From: a virus
Taxonomy: Duplodnaviria; Caudoviricetes
IMG/VR virus record: IMGVR_UViG_3300023235_001725
Length of the DNA stretch: 64,000 bases
Reading direction: 5' to 3' (one strand)
Positions 22,402 through 64,000 of the stretch are shown here, one piece after another (positions within the stretch are counted from its first letter, which is position 1; every line of letters starts with the position of its first letter). The notes below the pieces were generated by a model. It was not told where the DNA came from and made no database searches. It was given only the letters and a program-made list of their open reading frames with translations. A program made the translations under genes and the position numbers.

Positions 22402-22433
22402 AAAAAAAGACCCCCACTAAGGAAGGTCTTTTT
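22402..22433. terminator. intrinsic terminator downstream of nrdA-C
   Basis: AAAAAAAGACC...GGTCTTTTT. Confidence 0.7.
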
Positions 22434-22444
22434 ATACATCAAAA

Positions 22445-23095
22445 TTATGCTCCACAGCCAAAGCAATCAAAATCGCTTTCTTCTGGTCTAGCAGGTAGGT
22501 CATCGTAATCAGCTGTTGGTTCGTCTAATTGTTCTTCTTGCGCTTTTTTTGTCACAGTAAACTGAATAGCATCTGCAGCAGGCTTTGTCCGTAAGTAATA
22601 CATTCCAGTCTTAAGTCCTTTGTTCCATCCATAGAAGTGCATTGAGGTTAATTTTTGAAAATCTGGTTCGTCAATAAACACATTCATAGACTGACTTTGA
22701 CAAATAAATGCACCTCTATCTGCTGCCATGTCAAGAATATTTTTCTGCTTAATCTCCCAAACAGTTTTGTAAACATCCTGGATATCTTCTGGAATCTCAT
22801 CGATTCCTTGGACAGAGCCTCTGTTAGCGATGATTTTATTTCTAAGATTAAAGTCCCAGATTTTCAATTCGATTAATCTTTCAACCAAGTGAGGGTTCAC
22901 CAATACAAAGTTTCCAGAAAGAACTTTACGCTCGTAAATGTTTGAAGTAAAAGGCTCAAAACATTCGTTGTTTCCTAGGATTTGTGCTGTGTTATGACTT
23001 ACGCATCCGTTCCCCATTATGTAATGCTCCTCTCCTGGTACCGCTAAATCCCATGTAGGCTTTACTTTGCTTGGTGTTATTTTTTTTACTTTCAT
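22445..23095 (-). CDS. nrdA: class I ribonucleotide reductase alpha, C-terminal fragment with a 35-aa split-intein C-half (IntC)
   Basis: MKVKK...TWDLAV...[12 protein letters not shown] then extein [34 protein letters not shown], terminal CFGCGA. Confidence 0.93.
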
Positions 23096-24360
23096 TTTAT
23101 ATTGTTTTTAAGAAGAAAGTCTTCTACTTTCTCGTTGTTTACCTCTTTAGTTGAGCTGCTCCAAAGCTCTAAATATTTATACCCTTTCTCTAAAGCTAAG
23201 TCCTTCTTTCTCTGGTCTATGTTGTGTATTTCATCTGCAGACATTTTAACTCTATTAATACCTGAGCCTTTTAATCTCCAAGATTCCCAATTTTTCCACT
23301 CCTCCTTACTTAGCCTTTCTGGGTTTGGATGATATCTTTCGCCATGATACTCAATTATGATTTTTCGCTCAGGAATAGAAAAATCATAAAACCTCATGCA
23401 AGCGGAGTATTCGTCGTAAATACCTAACTCCTTACTCTCATCTATACCCACAAGTACTTCGAGTTCGCTTGAAAACTTATCAAACAGCGGTTGAAAAAAC
23501 ACAAGACTCTCTTTAGAAGCTCTTCCGAAATGTACTTGTTTCTTTAAAAAAATCTGCTCCACTTTGTTAATCGATTCTTTCTTTGACAAGCCTTTTGATA
23601 TCCAATAATCCACTGAAGAGGTGTTTAAATTTTCTGTATGAAACTTTTTTCTCATCTCTTCCGCATCCTCCTTGCTATATCCTTTATTAATCCAGTGTTT
23701 AGAAGTGAATACGCTTGTTTCTTTTTTTGCATCAACGTACTTATCCCACATATCTTTACCTTTATCTTCTCCGTGCTGTTGAATATACTTTTCTTTCGTG
23801 TGCTTTGAAGAATCTTGAAACTCTTTAAACAAGCTCAACCCTTTCTTTTCTCCATGTCTTTCTATAAAACCTTTCTCAGACGTTGCTTTGGAAGATTTGA
23901 AATTATCAATCTCAACCAGTGCTTCTTTCTCTGAAAAGCCCTTCTCAACCCAGTACTCCACTTTATAAGGAGTAACCCTGCTGCTGTAGGCATTTTCTTT
24001 TTTAATATTACCTAGCTCTAAACCCCATTTTAAATGGTAAAACTTATCTGAGTTAGAATCTGTCTTATTGGTTAATCTATACTTTACATATTTTTTAAAC
24101 CTTTCTCCATCAAAACTCTCAGACAACTCTTTTATGTTATCCCTTACTTTATGGCCAGGCATTTCTTTGCTTTGAATTACTTCAAAAGCAGAAATAAAGT
24201 GACTCACATCTAAGGACTCATGCATTTTAATTAATGCATACCCTGCCTTGATGTTGTCAAATATTAATTTGTCCATTTCAATGTTTGAGTTTCTTCTGAA
24301 AAAATCAGATACCCCCTTTAAAGTTCTTATCTCTGTATTATTAATTTTAAACCTATCCAT
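23092..24360 (-). mobile_element. free-standing Vsr/DUF559-like homing endonuclease between the nrdA halves
   Basis: C-terminal FYDFSIPERKIIIEYHGERYHPNP; repeated (Y)W..KG.S.EEA and HGE.KG DNA-binding-type repeats; ATGA overlap with nrdA-C. Confidence 0.85.
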
Positions 24361-24390
24361 TCTGTGCTATTTATTAATAAATAGCACAGA
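24361..24390 (-). promoter_or_regulatory. 30-bp perfect palindrome containing the putative late-promoter motif and abutting the endonuclease ATG
   Basis: TCTGTGCTATTTATT|AATAAATAGCACAGA then ATG on the minus strand. Confidence 0.8.
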
Positions 24391-24417
24391 ACTTTAGGCT
24401 GTCATGCCAGACGCAAC

Positions 24418-26634
24418 TTAGTTTTCAATTAGTTCTTCACATTTAATAGTTAGAATATCATCGTCTTCTTTTAACTCATTTACATAAACCCACTCATCTC
24501 CTGTAGTTCGACTCACAAGAAATCTATGATTTCCCGTAGCCTCCATTGTAGACCCATCTTCCATTTCTATATGGTAGACCTGCTTATGCCCATTGTAGTA
24601 CATCTTATCAGTTTCAACCTCTCCATTCATCGTGTCAACAATAACTGACTCTTTAAGAGTAATCCAATGTGGAGCATCAACCGACTCAATAGTTTTCCAA
24701 TCAATTCCACTTTGTTCTAAAATAGATTTGAAATTATTCACTTTTCCTTGGCTAAAGAACTCAGTGTCAATTACTTGACAACTTGCTGTAGGCATTGGAG
24801 CCAACAGCAGAGAGTTTCTAGCTCCAAACTCTTTCACTTTGTCCTTTAGACCATTCCAGTCCAAATTTAGATTCGGTGAGAGCTGAGACTCTTCCCAGTA
24901 ATCAAACTGGAAAATGCCTTTGCTTAGGTCTGAGCCTGGGAACGTTTCATATGCTCCATCTTTCATAGCTTCCTCCATAGAGGCCTCCATAGAAGCGAAG
25001 TAAATCATTTCGAAGATTTCCCTATTAAGTTGCTTTGCTACCTCCGAATCGAATGCCACGTGCATCTTAGCGAACACATCGGCTAAACCTTGAACACCAA
25101 TGCCAATTGGTCTGTGACGTAGGTTTGATTTCTTAGCCTCCACAACTGGGTAGAAATTTCGGTCGATAACCTTGTTAAGGTTTTTTGTGACCACCTTTGT
25201 AACCTCATATAGCTTATCAAAATCAAACTCGTACACTTTCTTGCTTGGGGTCTTAGCTGTGTTTGTTTGCTTCAAATACATTGGCAACGCAATAGATGCA
25301 AGATTACAAACAGCTACTTCATCTGGAGAAGTGTACTCCATAATTTCTGTACAGAGATTAGAGGACTTGATTGTTCCCAAGTGCTTTTGATTAGATTTAT
25401 GGTTAGCGGCATCCTTGTAAAGCATGTATGGAGTTCCTGTTTCAATTTGAGATTCAAGAATCTTGAACCAAATGTCTTGAGCAGGGATTGTCTCACGCCC
25501 TTTGCCTTGCCTCTCATATTTGGTGTACAACTTCTCAAAGTCATCTCCATAGCAGTCTGAAAGCCCAGGGCACTCGTTAGGGTCCATTAAAGTCCAGCTT
25601 GCGCCTTCATCAACTCGTTTCATAAACAAGTCTGGAATCCACATCGCGTAAAACAAATCTCTCGCACGCATCTCTTCTTTTCCTGTGTTCTTTTTCAAAT
25701 TAAGAAACTCGCGTATGTCTGCATGCCAAGGCTCTAAGTAGATTGCAAAAGAACCTTTTCGTTTTCCTCCACCCTGGTCAACATAACGAGCTGTGTCGTT
25801 AAAGTTTCTAAGCATTGGAACAATTCCATTAGAGGTTCCGTTGGTTCCTTTAATATAAGAGCCTTTGGCTCTTATGTTGTGAATGCTCAACCCTATCCCT
25901 CCAGCTGATTGTGAAATCAATGCACACTGCTTTAAAGTGTCATATATTCCATCAATAGAATCATCTTTCATCGTTAACAGGAAACAGGAAGACATTTGCG
26001 GTTTTGGAGTCCCTGCATTAAACAATGTAGGTGTTGCATGAGTAAAATACTTCATGGATAATAAATCATAAGTCTCTATAGCTTTGTCAATATCATCCAT
26101 GTGAATACCTACTGCAACGCGCATAAAAAGATGTTGAGGCCTTTCTGCTGGTGTTCCATGAGTCTTAAGAAGATACGAGCGTTTCATTGTCATGAATCCA
26201 AAATAGTCAAGCTGAAAATCTCGGTCTTGAATGATTGCCCCATTAAGTCTTGCACTGTTTTTTTTCACCACCGCATAGGCTTCCTCGCTAATAAGCGGTG
26301 CTGGTGCTTTTGTGATTGGGTCGACATACTCGTAGAGGTCTTTTATTGTCTGAGAAAACAATTTCTTTGTTTCCTTGTGAAGTGAAGTAATGGCTATTCT
26401 GGCTGCCAACTTTGAGTAATCTGGATGTGTTGTAACAAGAACGGCTGCCTTCTGAGCTGCTAATTCATCTAATTGCGTTGTTGATACACCGTCGAATATT
26501 CCTTGAATAACTTTTTGGGCTACTTCTGAATAATTAACTGCCTCCGATAAATCATAGCATTGCTTTTTAATTCTAGCAGCTATCTTATCAAACCTAACTT
26601 CTTCCTTAGAGCCGTTGCGTTTAGTAACTTGCAT
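24418..26634 (-). CDS. nrdA: class I ribonucleotide reductase alpha, N-terminal fragment ending in a 120-aa split-intein N-half (IntN, 24780-24418)
   Basis: ATP cone [41 protein letters not shown] then intein CQVIDT...[10 protein letters not shown]. Confidence 0.95.
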
Positions 26635-26718: not shown

Positions 26719-27708
26719 TTAAAAATCTGCGTCTTTGCTGAATGTCCTGGAGGATTTCCCACTGGCAACTCCAGGCTTTGCGTATTCACCGACTCGCCCT
26801 TCGAAGAAATTTGTTTTTGTGTCCACAGAAATCTTTTCCATGAAGTCAAACGGATTGATTGCATTATATTGTTTTGGACAGTTGAACTCGACAAGTAATC
26901 GGTCTGCCACAAACTCAATATAACTTTGCATCTGAAGAGCATTCATCCCTAAAAGACTCACTGGTAATGCATCTGTCACGAATTCTTTCTCTATATTGAC
27001 AGCATCTTTAATGATTTCAATGATTTCATCTTTAGAAATCTTGTTCACTAAGTGTTTGTTGAAAATGTGTACAGCAAAATCACAGTGCAATCCTTCATCT
27101 CTGGAAATTAGCTCGTTTGAAAAAGCTAACCCTGGCATTAATCCTCGGTCTTTTAACCAAAAAATAGAGCAAAAGCTTCCTGAAAAGAAAATGCCCTCGA
27201 CTGCTGCAAACGCAACTAATCTTTGAGCAAATGTCCCTTCATCAATCCATTTTAAAGCCCATTCAGCTTTCTTGCGAACACAGTCAAGAGTTTCTATCGC
27301 TCTAAAGAGCTTGTCTTTCTCGTTGCCGTCTTTAACGTAGGTATCGATTAATAGGGAATATGTTTCCGAGTGTACGTTCTCCATTGCTATTTGGAATCCG
27401 TAGAAGAACTTAGCCTCTGGATATTGAACCTCTGAAAGGAAGTTCTCTGCCAAATTCTCGTTTACAATTCCATCACTAGCTGCAAAAAAAGCAAGAACAT
27501 GCTTAATGAAATGACGCTCATTATCGTTTAATTTATCATTCCAATCTACAAGGTCGGCCTCTAAATCAATTTCTTCAGCCGTCCATATACACGCCTGTTG
27601 TTGTTTATAGTGTTGCCAAATATCATTGTGTTGAATCGGAAAAATCACAAAGCGGTTTGGATTTTCTTGTAAAATAGGCTCTATCCTATCAAGCGTCTTT
27701 TCACTCAT
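26719..27708 (-). CDS. nrdB: class Ia ribonucleotide reductase beta subunit
   Basis: [53 protein letters not shown]. Confidence 0.96.
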
Positions 27709-53197: not shown

Positions 53198-53560
53198 CTA
53201 ATTGTCGTAAAATTGAGAGTTGTCCTCTTGTTGTTTTATATGTGGGCACACGACGATGGTCTGTTGTAAAACATTTAACACCCTCATCATAGCTCCTAAA
53301 TCGTACATCTTATATTCTCGACAAAGCTTATGAAAATCATTTTCACAAACGTATCTAAATGTTGGTTGTCCGTCGATTTCAAGTCGAAGAGGAAAATAAT
53401 CCCATCCGTCTTGCATCATGCTGTTTTTGTACAATAACGTGCCATTGGCTCGCATTCGCCGAGTTGTCCCTATTGATGCGATTATACCGCCTGATTCTTT
53501 TGATTCCTCCAAGTTATTCAAGAGGTGTTTGTCAAACCAATAATGTTTCTTCATATGCAT
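53198..53560 (-). CDS. hypothetical protein
   Basis: ORF track. Confidence 0.6.
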   Translation of the reverse strand: MHMKKHYWFDKHLLNNLEESKESGGIIASIGTTRRMRANGTLLYKNSMMQDGWDYFPLRLEIDGQPTFRYVCENDFHKLCREYKMYDLGAMMRVLNVLQQTIVVCPHIKQQEDNSQFYDN

Positions 53561-54623
53561 GCATTACTGTTGTTAATTTAACTCTTCCGTTAAAGTTTAA
53601 AAATCCTTTTTCGTTTCGTTTGAATTTGCCTACGTATACAGCTTGTTTCTGTAGCTGAGGAAGAAGTTTTTCACTAATTGGAGAAAATATATTGAACTTT
53701 ACAGTGTCAATACCATCGCTTCCATGTATAGAGATAAAGTCTTTTCCTTTTTTAGTTTTCTTAAATAAGATATCATTGATAATAAACCAGTAAAAACCTT
53801 CTTCAGCATAATGTGGTAGTGGAAGAATAGCTTCTTTCGACTTGTCACTCATTTCCCCCATTCGGGTGTGAATAATTGAAACTCGATTAATTTCTTCCAT
53901 ATCAAAACCACATACTCCCATAAATTCATCTTGCTTTTCAATATCGGAAGTTGCTGCGTATTTTAAATGGTCTATTCTATGAGTGTACTCGATATCATCC
54001 ATGTCGAACATTGCAAACTGCGAAGCGTCTTTAGGTTTTTTCTTCCTGTTTTTATCTCTTAGAAACATTAAATATTCTCTAGAAGTGCTCCAGTCATCAA
54101 ACATTCCCGCTTGTAAACAAGAACGAAAAGAAGTCTTGTTGAATTTAGTGAAGGGTATATCAAAAAAAGCAGCCATAGATATTTCGCTAAATTTCTTCCC
54201 TTTTATTGCTAAATTATCTTTCAACTCTTTATAAGCAATATCTCCCATCCCAGTCATGCTAGAGAAACCCATTGTGATTTCGTTGGGGCCAGTCATCGAC
54301 CATCTCCATATTGAGAATCTAGTCGGAGGTTTTATAGTGATTCCTCTAGATATTGCAGCGGTGATTGTCTGAGTCAGCCATTGTTTTTCTTTCTCCTTTC
54401 CAGCGTTTGAAGACTTTTGCTCGTTCAATAGCGCTGTATAAAAGTATACTGGGTAGTAATGCTTTAAGTATAAAGTTTGCATAGCGATGTATGCGTATGA
54501 AACCGAGTGACTATTTGAAACACAGATATCATTTGCATAGAAGTTGTGATGTTCATTATCGATTTCTAAATCGTAAGTATCTACCACTCCTATTTCTTCA
54601 ACTTCTATAATAGATTCAAACAT
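53532..54623 (-). CDS. dnaE: DNA polymerase III alpha, C-terminal fragment preceded by a 37-aa IntC-2
   Basis: MFESII...TYDLEID..HNFYANDICVSN then SHSVSYAYIAMQTLYLKHYYP; HhH-like GFSSMTGMG; OB-like C-terminus. Confidence 0.92.
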   Translation of the reverse strand: MFESIIEVEEIGVVDTYDLEIDNEHHNFYANDICVSNSHSVSYAYIAMQTLYLKHYYPVYFYTALLNEQKSSNAGKEKEKQWLTQTITAAISRGITIKPPTRFSIWRWSMTGPNEITMGFSSMTGMGDIAYKELKDNLAIKGKKFSEISMAAFFDIPFTKFNKTSFRSCLQAGMFDDWSTSREYLMFLRDKNRKKKPKDASQFAMFDMDDIEYTHRIDHLKYAATSDIEKQDEFMGVCGFDMEEINRVSIIHTRMGEMSDKSKEAILPLPHYAEEGFYWFIINDILFKKTKKGKDFISIHGSDGIDTVKFNIFSPISEKLLPQLQKQAVYVGKFKRNEKGFLNFNGRVKLTTVMHAYEETLLV

Positions 54624-55594
54624 TTTATTTTGTTTTTTATAATTGACTCGTTATTAATTATATCATTCTCCCACAATTCTATAAGCTGAAAACTCCCGTC
54701 ACTTTCAACTGCATGCCTTTTTTTTATATCTCTTTTCTTGTTCTTTATTTGAACATCATGAGTACACCCGCTATGTCTTGTATTTTGATTACTATGAAAA
54801 AAATCTCCCTGTACTTCTATTAAAATGCTTCCTATTCTAAAGTCAAAAGAATAACCATAACAAGAAAACTCTTCTTCCCATGTACCTTTGAATTCTTTAG
54901 CGTGATTTGATTCAGAATAAGTATCTTTTCCAAATCGTTCACTTAGCATTCTCTTTACCTCAAGATGAGGTTTTGATTGACCATGAGAATAGACACCACT
55001 TTTGTATCTAGCTATCGTTATATCTCTAAGGCGCTGTTTAGTTTCTTCTGAATGTTTAAATCCAGTATGACCATGTATTTCTCTTTTTTTAGCACTCTCT
55101 GACATGCGCTCAAGTGTTTCATTGCTGAATTCAACGCCTTTTCTGCGCTCAGAAAGCTTTTTCATGACTTCATTATTATCTTTAGTTTTTCCTTTGTTCC
55201 AAGCTTTTATACCGTACATAGGGTTTCCTTTTCCTTTGCGTTCTTCCTTCATTCTTTCGACGTGAAGTTTATATTCTTTATTATTTTCCGCCACGTACTT
55301 AGCAGTTTCTGTTGTAGTACAATTATTCGAAAATTTACCGAAAACAATAGAGCCTTGAAGTTTGTAACTAGGCTTATCTCCTGTAATCGGACACAAAGGA
55401 GTTGTAATGGATTCTGGAAGCAAATCTACCAAACTCTTCCCATAAACACTTTTGTGATAATAATTTGATATCTCAGAATTGTAGTAGTTGTTGTTTTGTC
55501 TAATTAAAACTAATGACAACTTTGCCCTCCATTTTTTCATATCAATATCTTCGCCATTCACTATATCCTTTTTGAAATCGATTTTTACTTTCAT
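54605..55594 (-). mobile_element. NUMOD3-repeat, Vsr-like homing endonuclease inside dnaE split site 2
   Basis: KGNPMYG..AWNKG, HSEETKQRLR repeats; FDFRIGSILIEVQGDFFHSN...IELWEND. Confidence 0.85.
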
Positions 55595-55627
55595 AATATA
55601 TAGTATATAGACTGAGATTTGTTAAAA

Positions 55628-57250
55628 CTAGTTTATTTTTACAGAAAGCTTTTGTTCAATAATATCTTTCAGAGGTAACATACCTTGTTCAGTCATTATT
55701 TTATGGTCCAAAGTGCATTCTAAAATTTTCCCACTACTTGTCTTAATTCGATAAACTTTCTTTTTACCGTTGTTATGACGAGCTTTCACTGGAACCCATT
55801 CATTTTTTTTCGTGTCTGGATTATAACCTAAAATCATATCTCCTGGCCTAGTTTTTAAAAGAGATATTTTTCCCTTTTCCTTTTCTGTGACTTCACAGTT
55901 TTCAGATAAACATTTGTTAAACGAATACCCTAGATAATCAGAAAGGTATAAAAGGATTTTATCAACCTCTTCTTTCGGAACACCATTTTCCTCTGCTCCA
56001 GATACAAACTTACTCCAATACTCTTCGTAAGCTTTATAGTTCTTACTTTCCTTTTCGTCCTGAGTGAGTTCTTCTCCTTGGTTTGTTTTTTTTATAAGCT
56101 TCGCAGCTTTATCAAGTGCACGACGCAAGTTATCACCCTCTCCTAAATCCATTCCCGCTATCTCTTTTGCGATAAATTGAATTTGCTCCTGAAACACCAG
56201 TACACCGTTAGTTTTTTCTAATATTGGCTTTATCAAATCAGATGGAAATTCAATCTGTCCTGGGAACCTCTTGTTATCAACGTATTGACGGTGGGCTCCA
56301 ATTCCCATTGGGCCTGGTCGATAAAGAGCATTACAAGCAGCCATTTCTTCAAAGTTCTCAACGTTGAGTCCTCGAATCAAAGCGTTCATGCCTGGCGATT
56401 CAAATTGGAATATACCGTGGTTCTGACCAAGCATTAACTCCTTGTAAAGGTTTTGGTCATCAAACTGCTCATCAATATTCATTATTGTATCGAACAAATC
56501 AATCTTTTCACCATCCTTAACCATCTTGATACAATCCATGATGATATTAATTGTTGACACTTTCAAACGGTCAAGCTTCAATATCCCAAGATAACTCAAG
56601 TCTTTTCCAGAGCGGTCCCCCTCTTGATATGCTGATACAATTGATTTATTAGAGACAATCATATTTGTTGGGAGGTAGTCCCAAGAAGGCCCAGGAGTAA
56701 TAACAACTCCAGCGGCGTGTTTACCAAAACCTCTCACTTGACCCTGAAGAGCCAGTGTTTGTTCTATAATTACTTTGTTGGATGAATCAGTAAGCCATCT
56801 TTGTACGAGTGGACTGCAATCATCTGACTGAGCATGGTTTTCTAACCACCAAGCCAAGTTGTATTCGACTTTGTCGAACTTCGGCATCTCTTTAGTGATT
56901 TGAGCTACATCCGATTCAGTTCCTGTTGCTTCTGGCCCACGGTGTGCACGAACAACGTCCTTCAAACATCCTCTTTCATTCCATTTAGAAAAAGTACCAA
57001 CACTCATTACTCGTTCTCTACCATATTTTTTGTAAAGGAAGTCATCAGTTTCATGGTCTGTTCCTGTTTGAAAATCAATATCTAAATCGGGAGGGCTATT
57101 GTGTATGATTATCAGTGAGTTACACTCTTTATTTAAAGCTTTACTAGAAGTAGATTTGACCATAAAATATGGGTCCCCTTCAAAAGATAAGTCATAAACT
57201 GGCCCGTCGTACTGTATCTTGCGTATTGACTTTATGCTGACTGTCTTCAT
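55628..57250 (-). CDS. dnaE: DNA polymerase III alpha, middle catalytic fragment flanked by a 51-aa IntC-1 and a 94-aa IntN-2
   Basis: MKTVSIK...VYDLSF...IIHN then SPPDLDIDF, GKHAAGVVI, KLDRL, GIFQFES, LYRPGPM, VFQEQ, YSFNK then CLSEN...CTLDHKI; start ATG at 57250 overlaps the endonuclease TGA. Confidence 0.93.
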   Translation of the reverse strand: MKTVSIKSIRKIQYDGPVYDLSFEGDPYFMVKSTSSKALNKECNSLIIIHNSPPDLDIDFQTGTDHETDDFLYKKYGRERVMSVGTFSKWNERGCLKDVVRAHRGPEATGTESDVAQITKEMPKFDKVEYNLAWWLENHAQSDDCSPLVQRWLTDSSNKVIIEQTLALQGQVRGFGKHAAGVVITPGPSWDYLPTNMIVSNKSIVSAYQEGDRSGKDLSYLGILKLDRLKVSTINIIMDCIKMVKDGEKIDLFDTIMNIDEQFDDQNLYKELMLGQNHGIFQFESPGMNALIRGLNVENFEEMAACNALYRPGPMGIGAHRQYVDNKRFPGQIEFPSDLIKPILEKTNGVLVFQEQIQFIAKEIAGMDLGEGDNLRRALDKAAKLIKKTNQGEELTQDEKESKNYKAYEEYWSKFVSGAEENGVPKEEVDKILLYLSDYLGYSFNKCLSENCEVTEKEKGKISLLKTRPGDMILGYNPDTKKNEWVPVKARHNNGKKKVYRIKTSSGKILECTLDHKIMTEQGMLPLKDIIEQKLSVKIN

Positions 57251-58311
57251 TGAATTGCTTTTTTTAAGGTAGCTTTTACTTCTTCTCTGTTTTTGTCCCA
57301 ATCATGTTCCCATATGATAAAAACACGATATCCTGTTATCTTTTTAATTTGCTTAATTCTCTGTTCGTCAATCTCCCAAAGTTGTCCTGCTGTTTTCTTT
57401 TTATGAGGATGAAAGTAATCTGCTTTAAACTTTAATGGATTACAGTGCCAATAGTCTCCATAAAATTCTACTATAATACGGTTTTTAGGATTATAAAAAT
57501 CTACATGATATGCTTTTTTGTTTTCAACATCAGCAACTATAATTTGTTGATTTTCACTTTCATCATAAAAACTCGAATCAATAAGCTTTAAATCAGAAAC
57601 AAGGTATTCAACGAGTTTTTGCTCTTTTTTAGAACTCCCACTTCCAAAGTTGACTTGGATTTCATGTTGCACATTATCACTGTGGAATATATTCTCAACT
57701 CCATATTTTTCCATCATTGTTTCAGTCACAGCACTATAATGACTTCCTCTGTTTAAAAACCAAGGCACCCCGTATTTGTCTTGAATGGATTTAGATATCT
57801 TATCTCTAACTTCTTGTATTTGTACTGGAGAAGTTAACCCTGTTGTTCCATAAGTTTCATTTAATCCTTTTTGATATTTTTCTCTATAACCTTTTGTTCG
57901 ATAGTATATTTTTTTGTAATCACCGTGCTTCATATAAAACCCATGCTCCCAAAAAAACTTTCCCCCTCTAGAAGGATGGAGTTTGTGACGTATTTTTTTG
58001 TTATAAATTTTTGTAAAATATTCAACTTGACTCCCAGTTAAAGGGTAGTTTTTAGTATCCACCTCCAATCTCATCTGCGTCTTACCACGGTCAATGATGT
58101 AATGAAAACCAGTGATGACACCAGTTTTTTTATTATCTCTAATTAACATAGCTCCAATAATGCAAGAAGGAGAAACAGCTAAACCACACTTATATGGCCA
58201 CTCTTTGATTTCTTTTTTTGTTGGAACAGCATGAATAAGAGAAGTCTCACGAAGTCTTTGGTCGAGTTCCGCTTTTGTAATATCTTCTATGCTTAATAAT
58301 AAATCTATCAT
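57247..58311 (-). mobile_element. Vsr-like homing endonuclease inside dnaE split site 1
   Basis: KYGV repeats; VDFYNPKNRIIVEFYGDYWHCNP...IIWEHDW; ATGA overlaps at both ends. Confidence 0.85.
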
Positions 58312-58640
58312 TTTAGAAAGTCTTTATCTATAGATAGGCTCGGATTTTTAAACTCCAGTTCATACAGCCCCCAAAGCGCTTCTGCAATCTCATTTCCTCT
58401 TTCATCAATATTGTCAAACCACCCCTTCTCATTAGAGGGTATTTTGTGGGTATCTCTCGCGTTAATTCTTCCAATATCATGAGAGCCTTTATTGGAAGAC
58501 ATTGACATTATAATGTGGTCTAAGAATATTCTCACCTGCTTATCCCATTCTGTTGGTTTTTGCCAAGCTGGAATTATAAGTTTAGAACCTTCTTGACACA
58601 TACCTTTAAAATTAATATCTCTACTTCCTTGTACTATCAT
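58308..58640 (-). CDS. hypothetical protein inserted within the split-intein locus
   Basis: 110-aa ORF with ATGA overlaps to both dnaE-N and the endonuclease. Confidence 0.65.
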   Translation of the reverse strand: MIVQGSRDINFKGMCQEGSKLIIPAWQKPTEWDKQVRIFLDHIIMSMSSNKGSHDIGRINARDTHKIPSNEKGWFDNIDERGNEIAEALWGLYELEFKNPSLSIDKDFLK

Positions 58641-60826
58641 AATTTTCGTATTAACATTTTATCTGTCTCTAATAACTCATCCACGCGAATATCAACACGC
58701 TCTCCTTTGCGCATCACAGGTACAATGTGATTCCCCGTCAATTTTACAATGATGGAATCTTCAGTTTCAATCTCAAACACCTCATCAGCTGGTGTGATAT
58801 CTCGCTTATGCACTTGAACCAAAACGCCGTTGCCTGATTCTGTTTCAACTGGGTCCCCAGGAACAATATCTCCGATAGGTTTCAGTGAGCCATCTTTCAT
58901 CAACACCAGCCCATCTTCAGTAACGCAATTACGTGCTGGATTCAAAAAACGCTCAAAATACAGCCCGAATTGAATAGGGTCAATCTTAGTGATGTCAAGA
59001 CACCATGCTAATAAAGAACCAGCTGCAGAGCCTCTTCCACTTCCAATTTCAAAACCTCTTTTCTTATAATCTCGAATAATTTCCCAGTTTACAAGGAAGT
59101 AGTCAAGCATCTTCTTGTCCTTAATTACTTTTAACTCGTAATGGAGTCTATTTGTGTACTCATCTACAACCTCTTGTGTTTGTTGTAATTTTCCTTTGGT
59201 AAACTTACGTCCGAGCTTTTGCTTGAGTTTCGCAAAAGCCATCTTTGTGATAATGGTTTCCGTGTCCTCTGCTCCTGCCCAATCTATAATGTCTTTCGTT
59301 GGTTCGTAACGAGGGTATTTTTCAACCCCTACTTCAAATTCAAAATTGCAACGCTCAGCCAGCTTCAAAGTGTTATCCATGAATATCTGTAGAATGTTGT
59401 GCGGGTAATTGTATCCAAATTTTGAATTCAGAACATAGTAGTCTTTTCTCGACAAATAATACAGATTTCTTCGTTCCTCTAAACGACACTTATCCATCCC
59501 TATTTGTTGTTTTATAGCGGAAACAGTGTCTTGCAAAGACGCTTCTTTTTGCTTAACATAATGAACATCATTATCTAAAATCACCATTGCCTTCGTGGCG
59601 GATGCCATTTTTAAAACAAAGTTGTTAAATCGCTTTTGCTCACCAATCTCTGAAAACTTAATTTCTGCGATATAATCTGGGCCAAATGCTTTTTGTAATC
59701 GTTCCCAATATTTAGAAGCTGCCGTCTTTTGTCCTTTAAAAAACAAACTTGCGAGATATCCTTGGTAGTTTCCAGTGGTAACAATCAAACCTTCTTTGTT
59801 CTCAATTAACCAATCAGTGTGAATACGAGAATACATCCCATCAAAACCTTCTGAATGAGATTTAAATATCAGCTTATTAAGGTTTACAAAACCCACTTGG
59901 TTTTTAACAATGATTTTTATTGGGTATCCACCTTTTTCTGACTCTTCGGAGCCAACAGTATCGTTGAGATAGATTTCAATTCCAAATATTGGCTTGATTC
60001 CGTATTTTTCAGCTTTCTGTGACAACTCTAGACTGCCTGACATGGTTTCGACATCAATAACAGCGAGAGATGTGTGCCCTAGTTCTTTAGCACGCTTAAG
60101 ATAATTATCAATACTACCTGAGCCACGAAGCAAGCTATAGTGAGTGTGACAAGAGAAATGAACTAACGGCTTAGCTTCCTCTTCTGGGGATACCGATACG
60201 TGGGCAACACTCTCAGAAGAAAACCCATTAGAGGAATCGGAAGGAAGTTCTTTAAATCCGAAAATGCCAAGCCGTTGAAGTTCAAAAAAACATTTAGCGG
60301 TTGCTTGCACATCGAAAAATGCGTTGTGAGCACCTAAAAAGTCTTTCCCAAAAAGCTTATTATGGAGCTCAATAAGTTTTGGAAATTTATAACCCCGACG
60401 ACCCCTTAATTTACAAAAGTCAATTGTAAGCTTCATCGTGTCAACGGGAAATATTGAAGCTAGATTGTGACTCATCGATGCTCGATGAAATTCACACCCC
60501 ATAATTCCAAGGTCAAAATTGATATTATGTGCTATGAGGTAATAGTTACGCTCTAGAGCAATTTTAAACTGATTTAAGGCATCAAGCATAGAAATTCCTT
60601 CTGCGTGCGCCTTTTCGTTTGATATGCCGTGTATTTGAACGACTTCGTGAGGAATGTTGTATCCTTCAGGTTTAATTATAAGGTCGTGCCTGGATATTTC
60701 GCTGCCGTCTTGTGCATATTCAACCCAGGCTAACTGTACTAGTCGAGGCCAGTTATCTGCATCTGTCCAAGGTGCGTTAAACCGTTTTGGCCTGCCAGTA
60801 GTCTCTGTATCGAAGACTATATACAT
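58637..60826 (-). CDS. dnaE: DNA polymerase III alpha, N-terminal fragment (DEDDh exonuclease, PHP, start of palm) ending in a 96-aa IntN-1
   Basis: FDTETTG, AHNINFD, AHNAFFD; HFSCHTHYSLL; GSGRGSAAGS; FERFLNPARN then CVTEDG...LTGNHIV. Confidence 0.94.
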   Translation of the reverse strand: MYIVFDTETTGRPKRFNAPWTDADNWPRLVQLAWVEYAQDGSEISRHDLIIKPEGYNIPHEVVQIHGISNEKAHAEGISMLDALNQFKIALERNYYLIAHNINFDLGIMGCEFHRASMSHNLASIFPVDTMKLTIDFCKLRGRRGYKFPKLIELHNKLFGKDFLGAHNAFFDVQATAKCFFELQRLGIFGFKELPSDSSNGFSSESVAHVSVSPEEEAKPLVHFSCHTHYSLLRGSGSIDNYLKRAKELGHTSLAVIDVETMSGSLELSQKAEKYGIKPIFGIEIYLNDTVGSEESEKGGYPIKIIVKNQVGFVNLNKLIFKSHSEGFDGMYSRIHTDWLIENKEGLIVTTGNYQGYLASLFFKGQKTAASKYWERLQKAFGPDYIAEIKFSEIGEQKRFNNFVLKMASATKAMVILDNDVHYVKQKEASLQDTVSAIKQQIGMDKCRLEERRNLYYLSRKDYYVLNSKFGYNYPHNILQIFMDNTLKLAERCNFEFEVGVEKYPRYEPTKDIIDWAGAEDTETIITKMAFAKLKQKLGRKFTKGKLQQTQEVVDEYTNRLHYELKVIKDKKMLDYFLVNWEIIRDYKKRGFEIGSGRGSAAGSLLAWCLDITKIDPIQFGLYFERFLNPARNCVTEDGLVLMKDGSLKPIGDIVPGDPVETESGNGVLVQVHKRDITPADEVFEIETEDSIIVKLTGNHIVPVMRKGERVDIRVDELLETDKMLIRKL

Positions 60827-61062: not shown

Positions 61063-61317
61063 TTATTCGTAATCTGAGTCGTAGTCTTGTCGTTGCTTCA
61101 GAATGTCTCTAGATAAATCTTTTAAAGCAGCATGTATACGCCGAAGGCGGGAACGACTTCTCGTTCCCGCCGATTTCGTTTTTCGGTAGCTGTAAAATTT
61201 AGTTACATCAGTGGAATAAAGGTCCTCTAGTTCCTCTATAATCTTCGCTAGTTTACGCTTTACACTGTACGTGTCATTAACATTTGAGTGTTCATCAAAC
61301 TTACTCTTCCTCGTCAT
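61063..61317 (-). CDS. Hc1/histone-like small basic protein
   Basis: KTKSAGTRSRSRLRRIHAALKDL resembles the GNKAAGTRARK..L family motif. Confidence 0.6.
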   Translation of the reverse strand: MTRKSKFDEHSNVNDTYSVKRKLAKIIEELEDLYSTDVTKFYSYRKTKSAGTRSRSRLRRIHAALKDLSRDILKQRQDYDSDYE

Positions 61318-64000
61318 AGTCTTCTTCAATTATTTCCATATCAGAATTTTGCCCAGTTTCAGATATTATTTGGTCAATCTCATCCATTATATCTCTAGCT
61401 TTTCTTGCTAAATCATTACTGGTAGAGACAAGAGGGTTTCCTTGAACTCTTTCTTTTATTACTCCTTTTGGTATAATGTAATTTTCAATATTTTTCTCAG
61501 ATTCTTTTAAATTTCCCTTTATCTCACTAATCATTTTATCAGTCTGACTGATAAATTCTTCGTTTGATTTAAACAAAACGTTTTTTTCTCTGTCTTTCTT
61601 TTCTTCCTCGCTTTCTTCCGTAAATACTTCTTCATCGGTTTCCTCAAGCTCTTTAAGCAAGTCATCAATTGCACTATCAACACGCTTGTTGTGACCTTCC
61701 CAAATGCGTTCTCTTTTAGTTTCTGATATAGGCTCGCTATCACTTACTGGAGGCGCTCCTCCTGCATCGCCTCCAACTTCATCTCCACCTCCCATATCAA
61801 GGTCTCCAGATGGGTCTCCAGCCAGCGAGTCTCCTCCTCCGCCAAAGCCTCCGCCGCCGCCGCCGCCGTCATCTCCCATTAAATCTTCGTTCTCAGCGTT
61901 TTGGAGTGCTTCTGCTGCTCCTGGGATTTCAAATTTATCATCCAAATCTTTGAACAATCCAATCTTTTTGTATGTCTGCGGAGCAAATTCAATCTCCGTA
62001 AACAGTTTCCTTTCAACTTTTTTCTGACGAAGCATTTTCTTGATATCCTTTTCAGAAAATCCAAGAATGTATTTCATACCCCAAGTGTAAGAAGCAGGTG
62101 AGTAGATATCTTGTGACACAAACAATGTAAATACTTCAAGTCGAGATTTCATCGTCTCTAGCTTCAACAGCTCTTGTTGAGTAGAAGGGTTTGTGAGTTT
62201 TAAATCAAAATCATTAATCTCGTCTTCATGCCCAAGAAACGCTAAGTGAATTTTACCAATTCGACGAAGTTCCATTAGAACTTGCTCCTGGATTCTATTA
62301 ATGGTCCTAGCAAATCTTAAATCTGCTTGAGACAGTGTTGGCCCCCCAGGTAAATTCTCAGCATAATTCAAATAAGTTTTTGGAACCTTTAACGCCGCGA
62401 ATAGTTTATTTTCTAAATATTCAATATCTTGAATGTCACCTAGATTGCTATTTTGTGTAAAAACTCCGACAGAAAGTGCAAAATTATGGTGGTCATGTAG
62501 TTCATGATTTCCATCTACAGTTATTGTGCCTGTGTCTTGAGGTGTTTCTAGCCACTCAATCGATGCCACTTTATGATTAAATAATTCGGCTTTTTTCGTG
62601 AAATCTCTCCAGTTAGAATACCCAAATGACTTCATCATCTTCACTAAGTTATTGTGGGTGAAAGATGACATTTTCTTCAATTGCTTGTTCCCTTTGTTTA
62701 TGTTGTTAAATTCAGACATAAACCCAGAATTAGAGACATTAATGTCTCGTAGAATGTTGGTGGCACTCATGCCGTCTTGAAAACGAGAGACCACAAACTC
62801 CAACATTACATCGTTGTAATTTATTTCTTGTTTTTCTTGAATGGCTTCACGCAGAGAACCATCGGCCCATTGTTTAGAAGCGGCAATAGATGATTTTAGA
62901 CGAGAAGAAGATGTTTTTCTTGCTTTACGATATCCAGCTATTCGTTTCTTTTCAAAATCAGCTTTAAAATCTTCATCTTGCAGTAGCTCTTGAATTCGTT
63001 CTGTTGCTTTTTCTAAGTTGATTCGTGCTACTACTCTTTTAGATTCTAATTCTTTCTCAGAGATATTATCCCAATACTTATTTCTACCTTCTTTACGCTC
63101 TTTTTTATAAGAAGCATACATAGATTGATGAAGCATAACATGGTCATGGAAATTCATTAATTTTAAATTCTCTGGAGAATTATTGTATCGGTCAAAATCA
63201 TAATGATGAATCACGTTTTTGTTTTCCACATTTTTTTGATAAACATGTTCCTTGTGCAAATTGCGCTCATACATGTAATTATGAACCATACGATGTGTAT
63301 ACTCCCAGGATTTGCTTTGGTGGTCCCACACTTGTTCATATGTTTTAGCTTTAGGTTTGTTTTTGAAAATCTTCTGAAACCTCTTCTCAAAACTCCACAT
63401 AGAATCTCCTTCTTCAAGATTTTGTGCTTCTTGTATACCTTTAAAACGAGTAGGGAACTTGTGGTCAGGTGTAACAATAACAGACTCTCCGTTGTCAAAA
63501 GTCAATTTCATTACTTTAGCGTCTTTACGAGTAACTCCAGCCCATGTAATTTTTCCTGGAACTATTACTCCAGTTTCTGGATTTATACTGTAAGTCCAAA
63601 GCTGTTTTCCTTCATCACGCTCTTTAATGATTTCCTGAAGCTCAAGGCTTCGACCATCAAGAAGGTTGATTTTAGTATCTAGAGCCAAACAAGCTCCAGG
63701 AAGTGTGTCAATTTTTGTGCTCTTGTCACCACGAACTGGAATAAAATAATCTTCCGAGATATTCATTGGGTCATAACGATAACTCATATTGCCGTCGTTC
63801 TGATTCACAATAGGCTGTTTTTTAACTTGCTTTTGGATACGCTGCATGTATTGCTTAACATCAGCATCCTCCAAGTTGCCTACCTCAATGTAGAATATTC
63901 TACGCTCTGGAGCTCTTGTGATTCTATAGACCAACATTGAGTCCTCAGCGAGCTGTAGTTGCTTCCAAAGTTTTCTAGCAGGGTCTAAGATAGAGTTGTG
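61301..64000 (-). CDS. T4 gp20-like portal protein with intein (5' end beyond window)
   Basis: Frame open to the window edge: ILDPARKLWKQLQLAEDSMLVYRITRAPERRIFYIEVGN, EDYFIPVRG, DIEYLENKLFAALKVP, DLRFARTI. Confidence 0.92.
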   Translation of the reverse strand, partial: HNSILDPARKLWKQLQLAEDSMLVYRITRAPERRIFYIEVGNLEDADVKQYMQRIQKQVKKQPIVNQNDGNMSYRYDPMNISEDYFIPVRGDKSTKIDTLPGACLALDTKINLLDGRSLELQEIIKERDEGKQLWTYSINPETGVIVPGKITWAGVTRKDAKVMKLTFDNGESVIVTPDHKFPTRFKGIQEAQNLEEGDSMWSFEKRFQKIFKNKPKAKTYEQVWDHQSKSWEYTHRMVHNYMYERNLHKEHVYQKNVENKNVIHHYDFDRYNNSPENLKLMNFHDHVMLHQSMYASYKKERKEGRNKYWDNISEKELESKRVVARINLEKATERIQELLQDEDFKADFEKKRIAGYRKARKTSSSRLKSSIAASKQWADGSLREAIQEKQEINYNDVMLEFVVSRFQDGMSATNILRDINVSNSGFMSEFNNINKGNKQLKKMSSFTHNNLVKMMKSFGYSNWRDFTKKAELFNHKVASIEWLETPQDTGTITVDGNHELHDHHNFALSVGVFTQNSNLGDIQDIEYLENKLFAALKVPKTYLNYAENLPGGPTLSQADLRFARTINRIQEQVLMELRRIGKIHLAFLGHEDEINDFDLKLTNPSTQQELLKLETMKSRLEVFTLFVSQDIYSPASYTWGMKYILGFSEKDIKKMLRQKKVERKLFTEIEFAPQTYKKIGLFKDLDDKFEIPGAAEALQNAENEDLMGDDGGGGGGGFGGGGDSLAGDPSGDLDMGGGDEVGGDAGGAPPVSDSEPISETKRERIWEGHNKRVDSAIDDLLKELEETDEEVFTEESEEEKKDREKNVLFKSNEEFISQTDKMISEIKGNLKESEKNIENYIIPKGVIKERVQGNPLVSTSNDLARKARDIMDEIDQIISETGQNSDMEIIEEDYDEEE
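62450..63691 (-). mobile_element. contiguous intein (414 aa) with an HNH-type endonuclease in the portal
   Basis: LPGA|CLALDT...VTPDHKF...HRMV...VIHHYDFDRYNNSPENL...TITVDG..HNFAL..GVFTQN|SNLGDI. Confidence 0.9.

Follow-up and report, generated by a model that had tools for sequence, protein, structure and literature searches.

Organization of the interrupted nrdA locus

Analysis of the virus record IMGVR_UViG_3300023235_001725 (Caudoviricetes), of which a stretch of 64,000 nt was examined (hereafter the window, to which all locus coordinates refer), revealed an nrdA gene, coding for the class I ribonucleotide reductase (RNR) large subunit, that is broken into two open reading frames (ORFs) with a third ORF lying between them. 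All parts of the locus are encoded head to tail on the minus strand, namely nrdB, the first nrdA fragment fused to an N-terminal intein half (IntN), a 422-aa endonuclease ORF, and a C-terminal intein half (IntC) fused to the second nrdA fragment (Table 1). We consider it highly probable that this represents a fractured phage nrdA, whose two polypeptides are joined by a class-1 split intein and which harbors a selfish endonuclease gene between the intein halves. An earlier reading of the nucleotide sequence alone (the original prediction) had proposed the order PMPTAS, a 120-aa IntN, a stop, a 422-aa ORF and a 35-aa IntC ending in SHN, and the ORF coordinates agree with it.

The two nrdA fragments complement each other exactly. 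Of the 523 positions of the Pfam RNR barrel profile, the N fragment accounts for 1-395 and the C fragment for 392-523. The thiyl-radical motif SNLCTE is located in the N fragment (NLCTE at residue 426, with the break following residue 618), while the C fragment holds MYYLR (residues 165-169) and the C-terminal CxxC, here CFGC (residues 211-214), a distribution of motifs that had likewise been predicted. The N-extein is 55-63% identical to uninterrupted viral nrdA, and both fragments together show overall identities of 55-65% to intact nrdA. In a scan of IMG/VR with the C fragment, the exteins abut without insert at PTAS/TAQ (slashes mark intein boundaries here and below) in 80 of the 80 closest nrdA loci. 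PTAS-TAQ is therefore the native junction, and an ORF boundary arising here by chance can be dismissed, which bears out the claim that splicing would restore the sequence PTAS-TAQILGN. The alignment of the C-extein to human RRM1 starts at Thr607, so that the break is positioned between the equivalents of Ser606 and Thr607, within a highly conserved loop of the barrel. We take this loop to be one that contacts the substrate phosphates.

The ORF ending in IntN shares its frame with the 422-aa ORF, from which it is parted by three successive in-frame stops (TAA, TAA, TAG), whereas the stop of the 422-aa ORF overlaps the start of the IntC ORF by 4 nt (ATGA) in a different frame. Owing to these stops and to the change of frame, the three products are truly separate. 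A terminator-like site is found directly after the second nrdA fragment and closes the nrdB-nrdA run.

Table 1. Features of the nrdA locus and of the DnaE and portal genes in the 64,000-nt window.
Feature	Coordinates	Strand	Remarks
nrdB (RNR small subunit)	26719..27708	-	first gene of the run; Pfam Ribonuc_red_sm E 1.9e-110
nrdA-N::IntN ORF, 738 aa	26634..24418	-	TAA stop at 24418-24420
nrdA N-extein, 618 aa, up to PMPTAS	24781..26634	-	Pfam ATP-cone, RNR all-alpha, RNR barrel
N-intein (IntN), 120 aa, CQVIDT...TGNHRFL...ELIEN	24421..24780	-	Cys1, block B TGNH
Spacer RNA hairpin	24350..24400	-	57-nt spacer between IntN and endonuclease ORF
Free-standing homing endonuclease gene (predicted activity), 422 aa	23092..24360	-	Vsr-like nuclease domain, residues 282-421 (23098..23517)
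IntC::nrdA-C ORF, 216 aa, begins MKVKK	23095..22445	-	own ATG
C-intein (IntC), 35 aa, ends NGCVSHN	22991..23095	-	block F Asp16, His34-Asn35
nrdA C-extein, 181 aa, Thr+1 first (TAQILGNNE...)	22445..22990	-	Pfam barrel profile; aligned to human RRM1
Terminator-like hairpin and T-run	22404..22433	-	consensus scan, 12-pair stem then TTTTT; pattern match only
DnaE piece	58637-60826	-	exonuclease, PHP, pol3-alpha; C-terminal Hint match
DnaE piece	55628-57301	-	pol3-alpha, finger; C-terminal intein match
DnaE, probable further piece	53532-54623	-
ORF between DnaE fragments	57247..58311		nuclease domain related to nrdA endonuclease (hhalign probability 96%)
T4-like portal gene	61301-63937	-	apparent contiguous intein (Pfam Intein_splicing, residues 92-478)

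The phage NrdA is strikingly similar to its eukaryotic counterparts. Searching PDB sequences with the C-extein returned human RRM1 as the best match (E 6.7e-64), followed by yeast Rnr1, with bacterial chains far behind, and several of the nearest nrdA relatives in IMG/VR are contigs of giant-virus metagenome-assembled genomes. Megablast with the 4.2-kb locus as query gave no match in the phage collection of GenBank.

Intein halves and splicing residues

The tail of the first nrdA fragment was hit by the Pfam model Intein_splicing with an E-value of 3.5e-6 (27.3 bits, compared to a gathering cutoff of 35.8). With this 120-aa tail as query, phmmer retrieved from the PDB sequences the mini-intein of Ssp DnaB as well as split inteins of DnaE, the alignment being centered on block B, where TGNHRFL of IntN is aligned to TANHRFL of the Ssp DnaB intein. 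All residues required for class-1 splicing are present, namely Cys1, which directly follows PMPTAS, the TxNH of block B, the Asp of block F, the terminal His-Asn, and a Thr or Ser at position +1. C1, T82, N84 and H85 are among the invariant residues in 11 aligned IntN, and D16, H34 and N35 are among those in 8 aligned IntC, in which +1 is always Thr or Ser, even though the relatives are no more than 27-57% (IntN) and 43-78% (IntC) identical. When searching sequence databases with the 120-aa tail, we found 19 RNR proteins that carry the element at the same site; Cys1 and [TS]xNH are kept in all 19 N-parts, with SxNH occurring in a more distant subclade.

The identification of Thr as the +1 nucleophile by the original prediction was correct, and this residue is simply that of the native extein: Thr is the native nrdA residue at this position, and relatives carry Ser where their own nrdA has Ser. 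The pairing of Cys1 with Thr+1 is an accepted one among class-1 inteins (PMC10189870).

IntN has a net charge of -15 (-7 in its last 30 aa) and the first 15 aa of IntC one of +5. An AlphaFold model of IntN alone reached a mean predicted local distance difference test score (pLDDT) of 80, and in a Foldseek search with this model nearly all of the first 33 matches listed were inteins, the Npu DnaE N chain being first with a probability of 0.96.

The free-standing endonuclease

No Pfam model, including those for NUMOD, matched the 422-aa ORF and the PDB sequence search was silent. The only hit in PHROGs was phrog_22677, for which no function is assigned there. Relatives are nevertheless numerous in metagenomes, where 37 were found by word search and 1475 cluster representatives at E <= 0.001. 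An alignment of 34 homologues revealed E337, G340, H344, D382 and K385 as invariant, D326 and E311 as conserved in at least 90% of the sequences, and Y325 together with an SKES motif as nearly invariant. The resulting pattern YDF...IIEYHGxxxH resembles D51...FWH69 of Vsr, a likeness of patterns and not a superposition.

An AlphaFold model of the protein (pLDDT 89) gave E-values no better than 0.05 in a plain Foldseek search. With VIA-align, residues 282-421 aligned to I-Bth0305I (3r3p_A) with a Z-score of 9.3 and a root mean square deviation of 2.7 A over 95/97 residues, and to Vsr with Z-scores of 9.2 (1cw0_A) and 8.4 (1vsr); a mitoribosomal chain (9i05_Xr) also reached 8.4. I-Bth0305I is the prototype of the EDxHD homing endonucleases (PMC3239194), a family first predicted from fractured genes (PMC3239194; PMC2677866). 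Since the C-terminal domain is modeled to fold like I-Bth0305I and Vsr, we assign the middle ORF to the EDxHD (Vsr-like) family of homing endonucleases, with its activity being predicted.

The N-terminal region of about 280 residues is helical and contains three YWxxKGxSxxEA repeats, which recall the NUMOD or helix-turn-helix repeats of the EDxHD family without matching a NUMOD profile. A 300-aa variant of the window endonuclease (P0020) is encoded on a 153.9-kb contig; it is 100% identical from residue 137 onwards and devoid of the first ~125 aa, and it matches the short endonuclease form of loci L089 and L082 described below. The sequences thus compared suggest that the N-terminal module is dispensable or in the process of being lost.

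A hairpin at the endonuclease start codon

Within the spacer between IntN and the endonuclease gene, a perfect 15-bp stem (24392..24359) and a 6-bp outer stem enclose the ATG of the endonuclease (24360..24358). The hairpin has a folding energy of -28.5 kcal/mol (z -4.95), and 0 of 200 shuffled sequences folded as well. In loci L090, L088 and L083, endonuclease homologues are likewise preceded by a hairpin whose stem contains the ATG, and the spacers of split loci devoid of an endonuclease show no such hairpin and are unstructured. Hairpins preceding the inter-fragment ORFs in the DnaE region of the window were not significant (z -0.7 to +0.5), so that the hairpin belongs to this endonuclease lineage instead of being a general signal of the phage. 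Dassa et al. (2009) found hairpins in 15 of 16 5' untranslated regions of such endonucleases and read them as translational repression as in mobE of Aeh1 (PMC2677866).

States of the intein in related loci

Scans of IMG/VR with the single sequences of IntN and of the endonuclease yielded no relatives, and with the C fragment as query uninterrupted nrdA was all that was retrieved, without any intein-bearing locus. A degenerate pattern recovered one contig from IMG/VR, and a looser pattern applied to metagenome contigs gave ten informative loci. Together with the proteins from the database search, these loci display the intein in several states at the same site.

In the proteins P0019 (980 aa) and P0012 the element is a contiguous mini-intein, in which IntN continues over a short linker into WDLEVPE..ENG.VSHN/TAQIMGNNE. 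Over IntN, the two share 93-96% identity with proteins that end after IntN (P0015, P0011). Because the same intein occurs uninterrupted at the same site, the two halves in the window can be regarded as parts of one working HINT domain. Invariant splicing residues, contiguous relatives and the nuclease fold together support the core of the original prediction, a split intein (here of class 1) whose halves flank a free-standing endonuclease.

The split form with a full endonuclease is found in the window, in L090 and in P0003/P0021, apparently one contig of 44,269 bp, where the three-gene layout is kept with 74% identity in the N-intein region and 65% in the endonuclease. In L089 and L082 the endonuclease is shorter, lacking the first ~125 aa, and in L088 it is reduced to a remnant of 75 aa with the hairpin kept. 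Four loci (L087, L083, L085, L086) are split with a short AT-rich spacer and no endonuclease between the halves. Taken together these states look like a cycle of gain and loss, in which a free-standing endonuclease cassette enters a mini-intein, as described by the 'gene-breaking' model (PMC2677866).

In L083 (5623-6885, plus strand) a 420-aa endonuclease homologue with 40% identity is located directly downstream of the second nrdA fragment and outside the intein, behind a terminator-like hairpin and with an ATG-burying hairpin of its own. The cassette is thus mobile on its own, without the intein, since this copy lies downstream of a split nrdA that lacks an endonuclease.

The split form persists after loss of the endonuclease and accounts for 17 of the 19 sampled N-parts. 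One could speculate that the intein at this site switches often, and recently, between one and two pieces while the split state itself is kept by selection, for example by making RNR assembly conditional on both halves. We think this unlikely, the alternative being that the split is a scar of endonuclease invasion. If true, the family would supply a Cys1/Thr+1 intein in matched, naturally occurring cis and trans forms, with which the gene-breaking model could be tested directly.

Further arrangements were observed among the metagenome loci. A related split intein (IntC 46% identical) occurs in a B12-dependent class II RNR (L084, 2689-6170, minus strand), with a 392-aa Vsr-like endonuclease between the halves. 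Its site, KPAG/C...THN/TSS, looks like the homologous loop. L091 (10689-13162, minus strand) carries the same gene with the endonuclease reduced to an in-frame remnant of 36 aa. Besides the PTAS site, L085 (11918-14943, minus strand) and L082 (155-1150, minus strand) are interrupted by another split intein, located one residue past the thiyl-radical Cys (SSNLC/...VHN/SEIM); with two split inteins per nrdA, their NrdA would be made from three polypeptides. In L081 (2-5498, minus strand) a D12-class (Dam-like) DNA methyltransferase ORF, in place of an endonuclease, follows the nrdA-N::IntN fusion, but the contig ends there. The nrdA of L081 additionally contains a large contiguous intein at the site GGG/KRKG, and the neighboring nrdB (636 aa) looks intein-bearing by its sequence.

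Proposed mechanism and alternative explanations

The following course of events is proposed for the locus. The nrdB gene, the nrdA-N::IntN fusion, the endonuclease gene and the IntC::nrdA-C fusion are probably co-transcribed, with the transcript ending at the terminator, and polypeptides of 738 and 216 aa would be translated from the two nrdA fragments. The acidic IntN and the basic start of IntC would then associate electrostatically to form the HINT fold. Class-1 splicing would proceed by an N-S acyl shift at Cys1, attack by Thr+1, cyclization of Asn35 and an O-N shift. The exteins would thereby be ligated to a NrdA of 799 aa with the native PTAS-TAQ junction restored in the substrate-binding barrel. 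The 422-aa endonuclease would be a separate selfish passenger, which is probably made sparingly or late, since its start codon is locked in the hairpin. It probably cuts intein-less nrdA of co-infecting phages, whereupon repair would copy in the cassette of IntN, endonuclease and IntC. In this scheme the layout of the locus, the homologies, the conserved catalytic residues, the nuclease fold, the hairpin and the other states seen in relatives are shown, and the association of the halves, splicing, activity and target of the endonuclease, regulation by the hairpin and co-transcription are inferred. The supply of deoxynucleoside triphosphates (dNTPs) would consequently depend on trans-splicing.

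Several observations weigh against this interpretation. The Pfam match of IntN stays under the gathering score, and its fold matches are weak (best E 0.02, template modeling scores 0.3-0.4); both would be expected since IntN is half a domain. That this intein and its close relatives splice is deduced from their sequences. A sigma-70 scan found no convincing promoter, and an operon is accordingly an assumption. Translation of the C fragment may be affected because its start overlaps, by ATGA, an endonuclease gene that is repressed, which the scheme would have to reconcile with a sufficient supply of this fragment. Finally, a second RNR may be encoded outside the 64-kb window, in which case dNTP synthesis need not hinge on this gene.

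The intein halves might alternatively act as a clasp that only docks the NrdA fragments into a non-covalent (a/b)2 complex. The short tails of the Aeh1 NrdA fragments work in this manner and the fragmented enzyme is fully active without splicing (PMC3045599), and for our locus the case for splicing is itself an argument from sequence. The tails in the window are not of the short, non-intein Aeh1 type, however, but are complete intein halves with all catalytic residues. The residues needed for nothing but the chemistry (Cys1, the block B Thr and His, the penultimate His, the terminal Asn and the +1 residue) are invariant across divergent relatives, and the contiguous inteins of P0019 and P0012 must splice to free a working NrdA. 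Docking without splicing is improbable for these two reasons. Moreover, ~155 extra residues in the conserved PTAS/TAQ barrel loop would probably obstruct the site.

A trans-spliced NrdA is also to be distinguished from a gene in decay, in which nrdA, broken up by mobile DNA, is turning into a pseudogene while the phage relies on an RNR of the host or on another one. There is a precedent in the intein-riddled nrdA of Campylobacter phages, which is thought to be degenerating (PMC3653736). Here, both fragments are full-length with all catalytic motifs kept at the identities to intact nrdA given above, an intact nrdB is found directly upstream, and the three-gene layout is preserved in the relative P0003/P0021, so that we regard decay as very unlikely. 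The shared frame of IntN and the 422-aa ORF could furthermore suggest that suppression of the UAA after IntN produces a fusion with the endonuclease and hence a classical bifunctional intein. Read-through would have to pass all three in-frame stops, one of which is a TAG, and the change of frame at the ATGA overlap between endonuclease and IntC would still yield no contiguous intein. We rejected such a fusion on these grounds and assign it a negligible probability. The preferred reading remains that of two polypeptides joined by trans-splicing.

Comparison with previously described systems

The closest counterparts are the fractured genes described by Dassa, London, Stoddard, Schueler-Furman and Pietrokovski in 2009, which include the loci NrdA-1 to NrdA-7 and half of which contain endonucleases of the EDxHD family (PMC2677866). 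The nrdA locus in the window shares with them the layout of three ORFs, in which extein-N::IntN is followed on the same strand by a short spacer, a free-standing endonuclease gene and IntC::extein-C, together with a hairpin that covers the start of the endonuclease, the overlap of the endonuclease 3' end with the start of IntC, and the Vsr-like endonuclease family. Phage origin and the class I RNR large subunit as host gene are common to our locus and their NrdA loci, and the combination of an acidic IntN with a basic IntC is also seen in NrdA-2, NrdJ-1 and IMPDH-1. Variants without endonuclease are known from both data sets (gp41-7 in theirs; L087, L083, L085 and L086 here). The insertion site differs, being directly N-terminal to the thiyl-radical Cys in NrdA-1 to NrdA-7 and ~190 residues downstream of it here. 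Further differences are the Thr at +1, the longer IntN (120 aa, compared to 88-105), the longer spacer (57 nt, compared to 27-51), the shorter overlap (4 nt, compared to 6-69), and a host nrdA that is eukaryote-like instead of cyanophage-like.

The endonuclease shares with I-Bth0305I (Taylor et al. 2011, PMC3239194; PDB 3r3p) an N-terminal helical region resembling a DNA-binding region, a C-terminal nuclease domain and conserved residues that resemble the Asp/His/Asp type. I-Bth0305I is located in a group I intron in recA, whereas the window endonuclease is free-standing between the halves of a split intein; the two are ~17% identical, and the latter has a much longer N-terminal region (~280 aa) with an optional first ~125 aa.

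In Aeromonas phage Aeh1 (Friedrich et al. 2007; Crona et al. 2011, PMC3045599), nrdA is likewise divided, into nrdA-a and nrdA-b, by the free-standing endonuclease gene mobE, which is regulated by a hairpin and overlaps the downstream fragment. In Aeh1, however, the endonuclease is of the HNH type, there is neither intein nor splicing, short tails serve assembly, and the break is located between active-site cysteines. The cyanobacterial DnaE split inteins (Ssp, Npu) resemble the one described here in being class-1 with Cys1, an IntN of ~100-120 aa, an IntC of ~35 aa and electrostatic complementarity. They differ in that their halves are far apart in the genome with no endonuclease, in a Cys at +1 and in the host protein, and they are only distantly related to the window IntN in sequence (E about 0.004).

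The locus is thus a clear new example of the fractured-gene layout of 2009 and not a new kind of system. The concepts are unchanged, since publications from 2009 to 2011 had already covered the arrangement, the family of the endonuclease and the regulatory hairpin. The original prediction made no mention of this precedent, which includes nrdA examples. New are the insertion site at the equivalents of RRM1 Ser606/Thr607 and the family of split-intein alleles at this nrdA site. In the literature we came across no description of a split intein at this position of nrdA, although a contiguous RIR1 intein might be catalogued in InBase at the homologous position. With its natural contiguous, split and endonuclease-free states the family is useful for examining the gene-breaking model of how split inteins arose, and protein engineering might draw on it for orthogonal Cys1/Thr+1 split inteins. 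A huge phage from a salt lake would place its dNTP synthesis, and seemingly its DnaE polymerase too, behind protein trans-splicing, which illustrates the extent to which selfish elements may colonize replication genes of huge phages without killing them.

Further inteins in the window

The original prediction counted the nrdA element as the third split intein, which fits the content of the window as far as a partial check goes. A DnaE-type polymerase (53532-60826, minus strand) seems to be spread over three or more coding pieces with ORFs between them, and Hint or intein matches are found at the C-termini of two of these pieces. One of the ORFs between the DnaE fragments encodes a nuclease domain related to that of the nrdA endonuclease, and the T4-like portal gene carries an apparent contiguous intein (Table 1).

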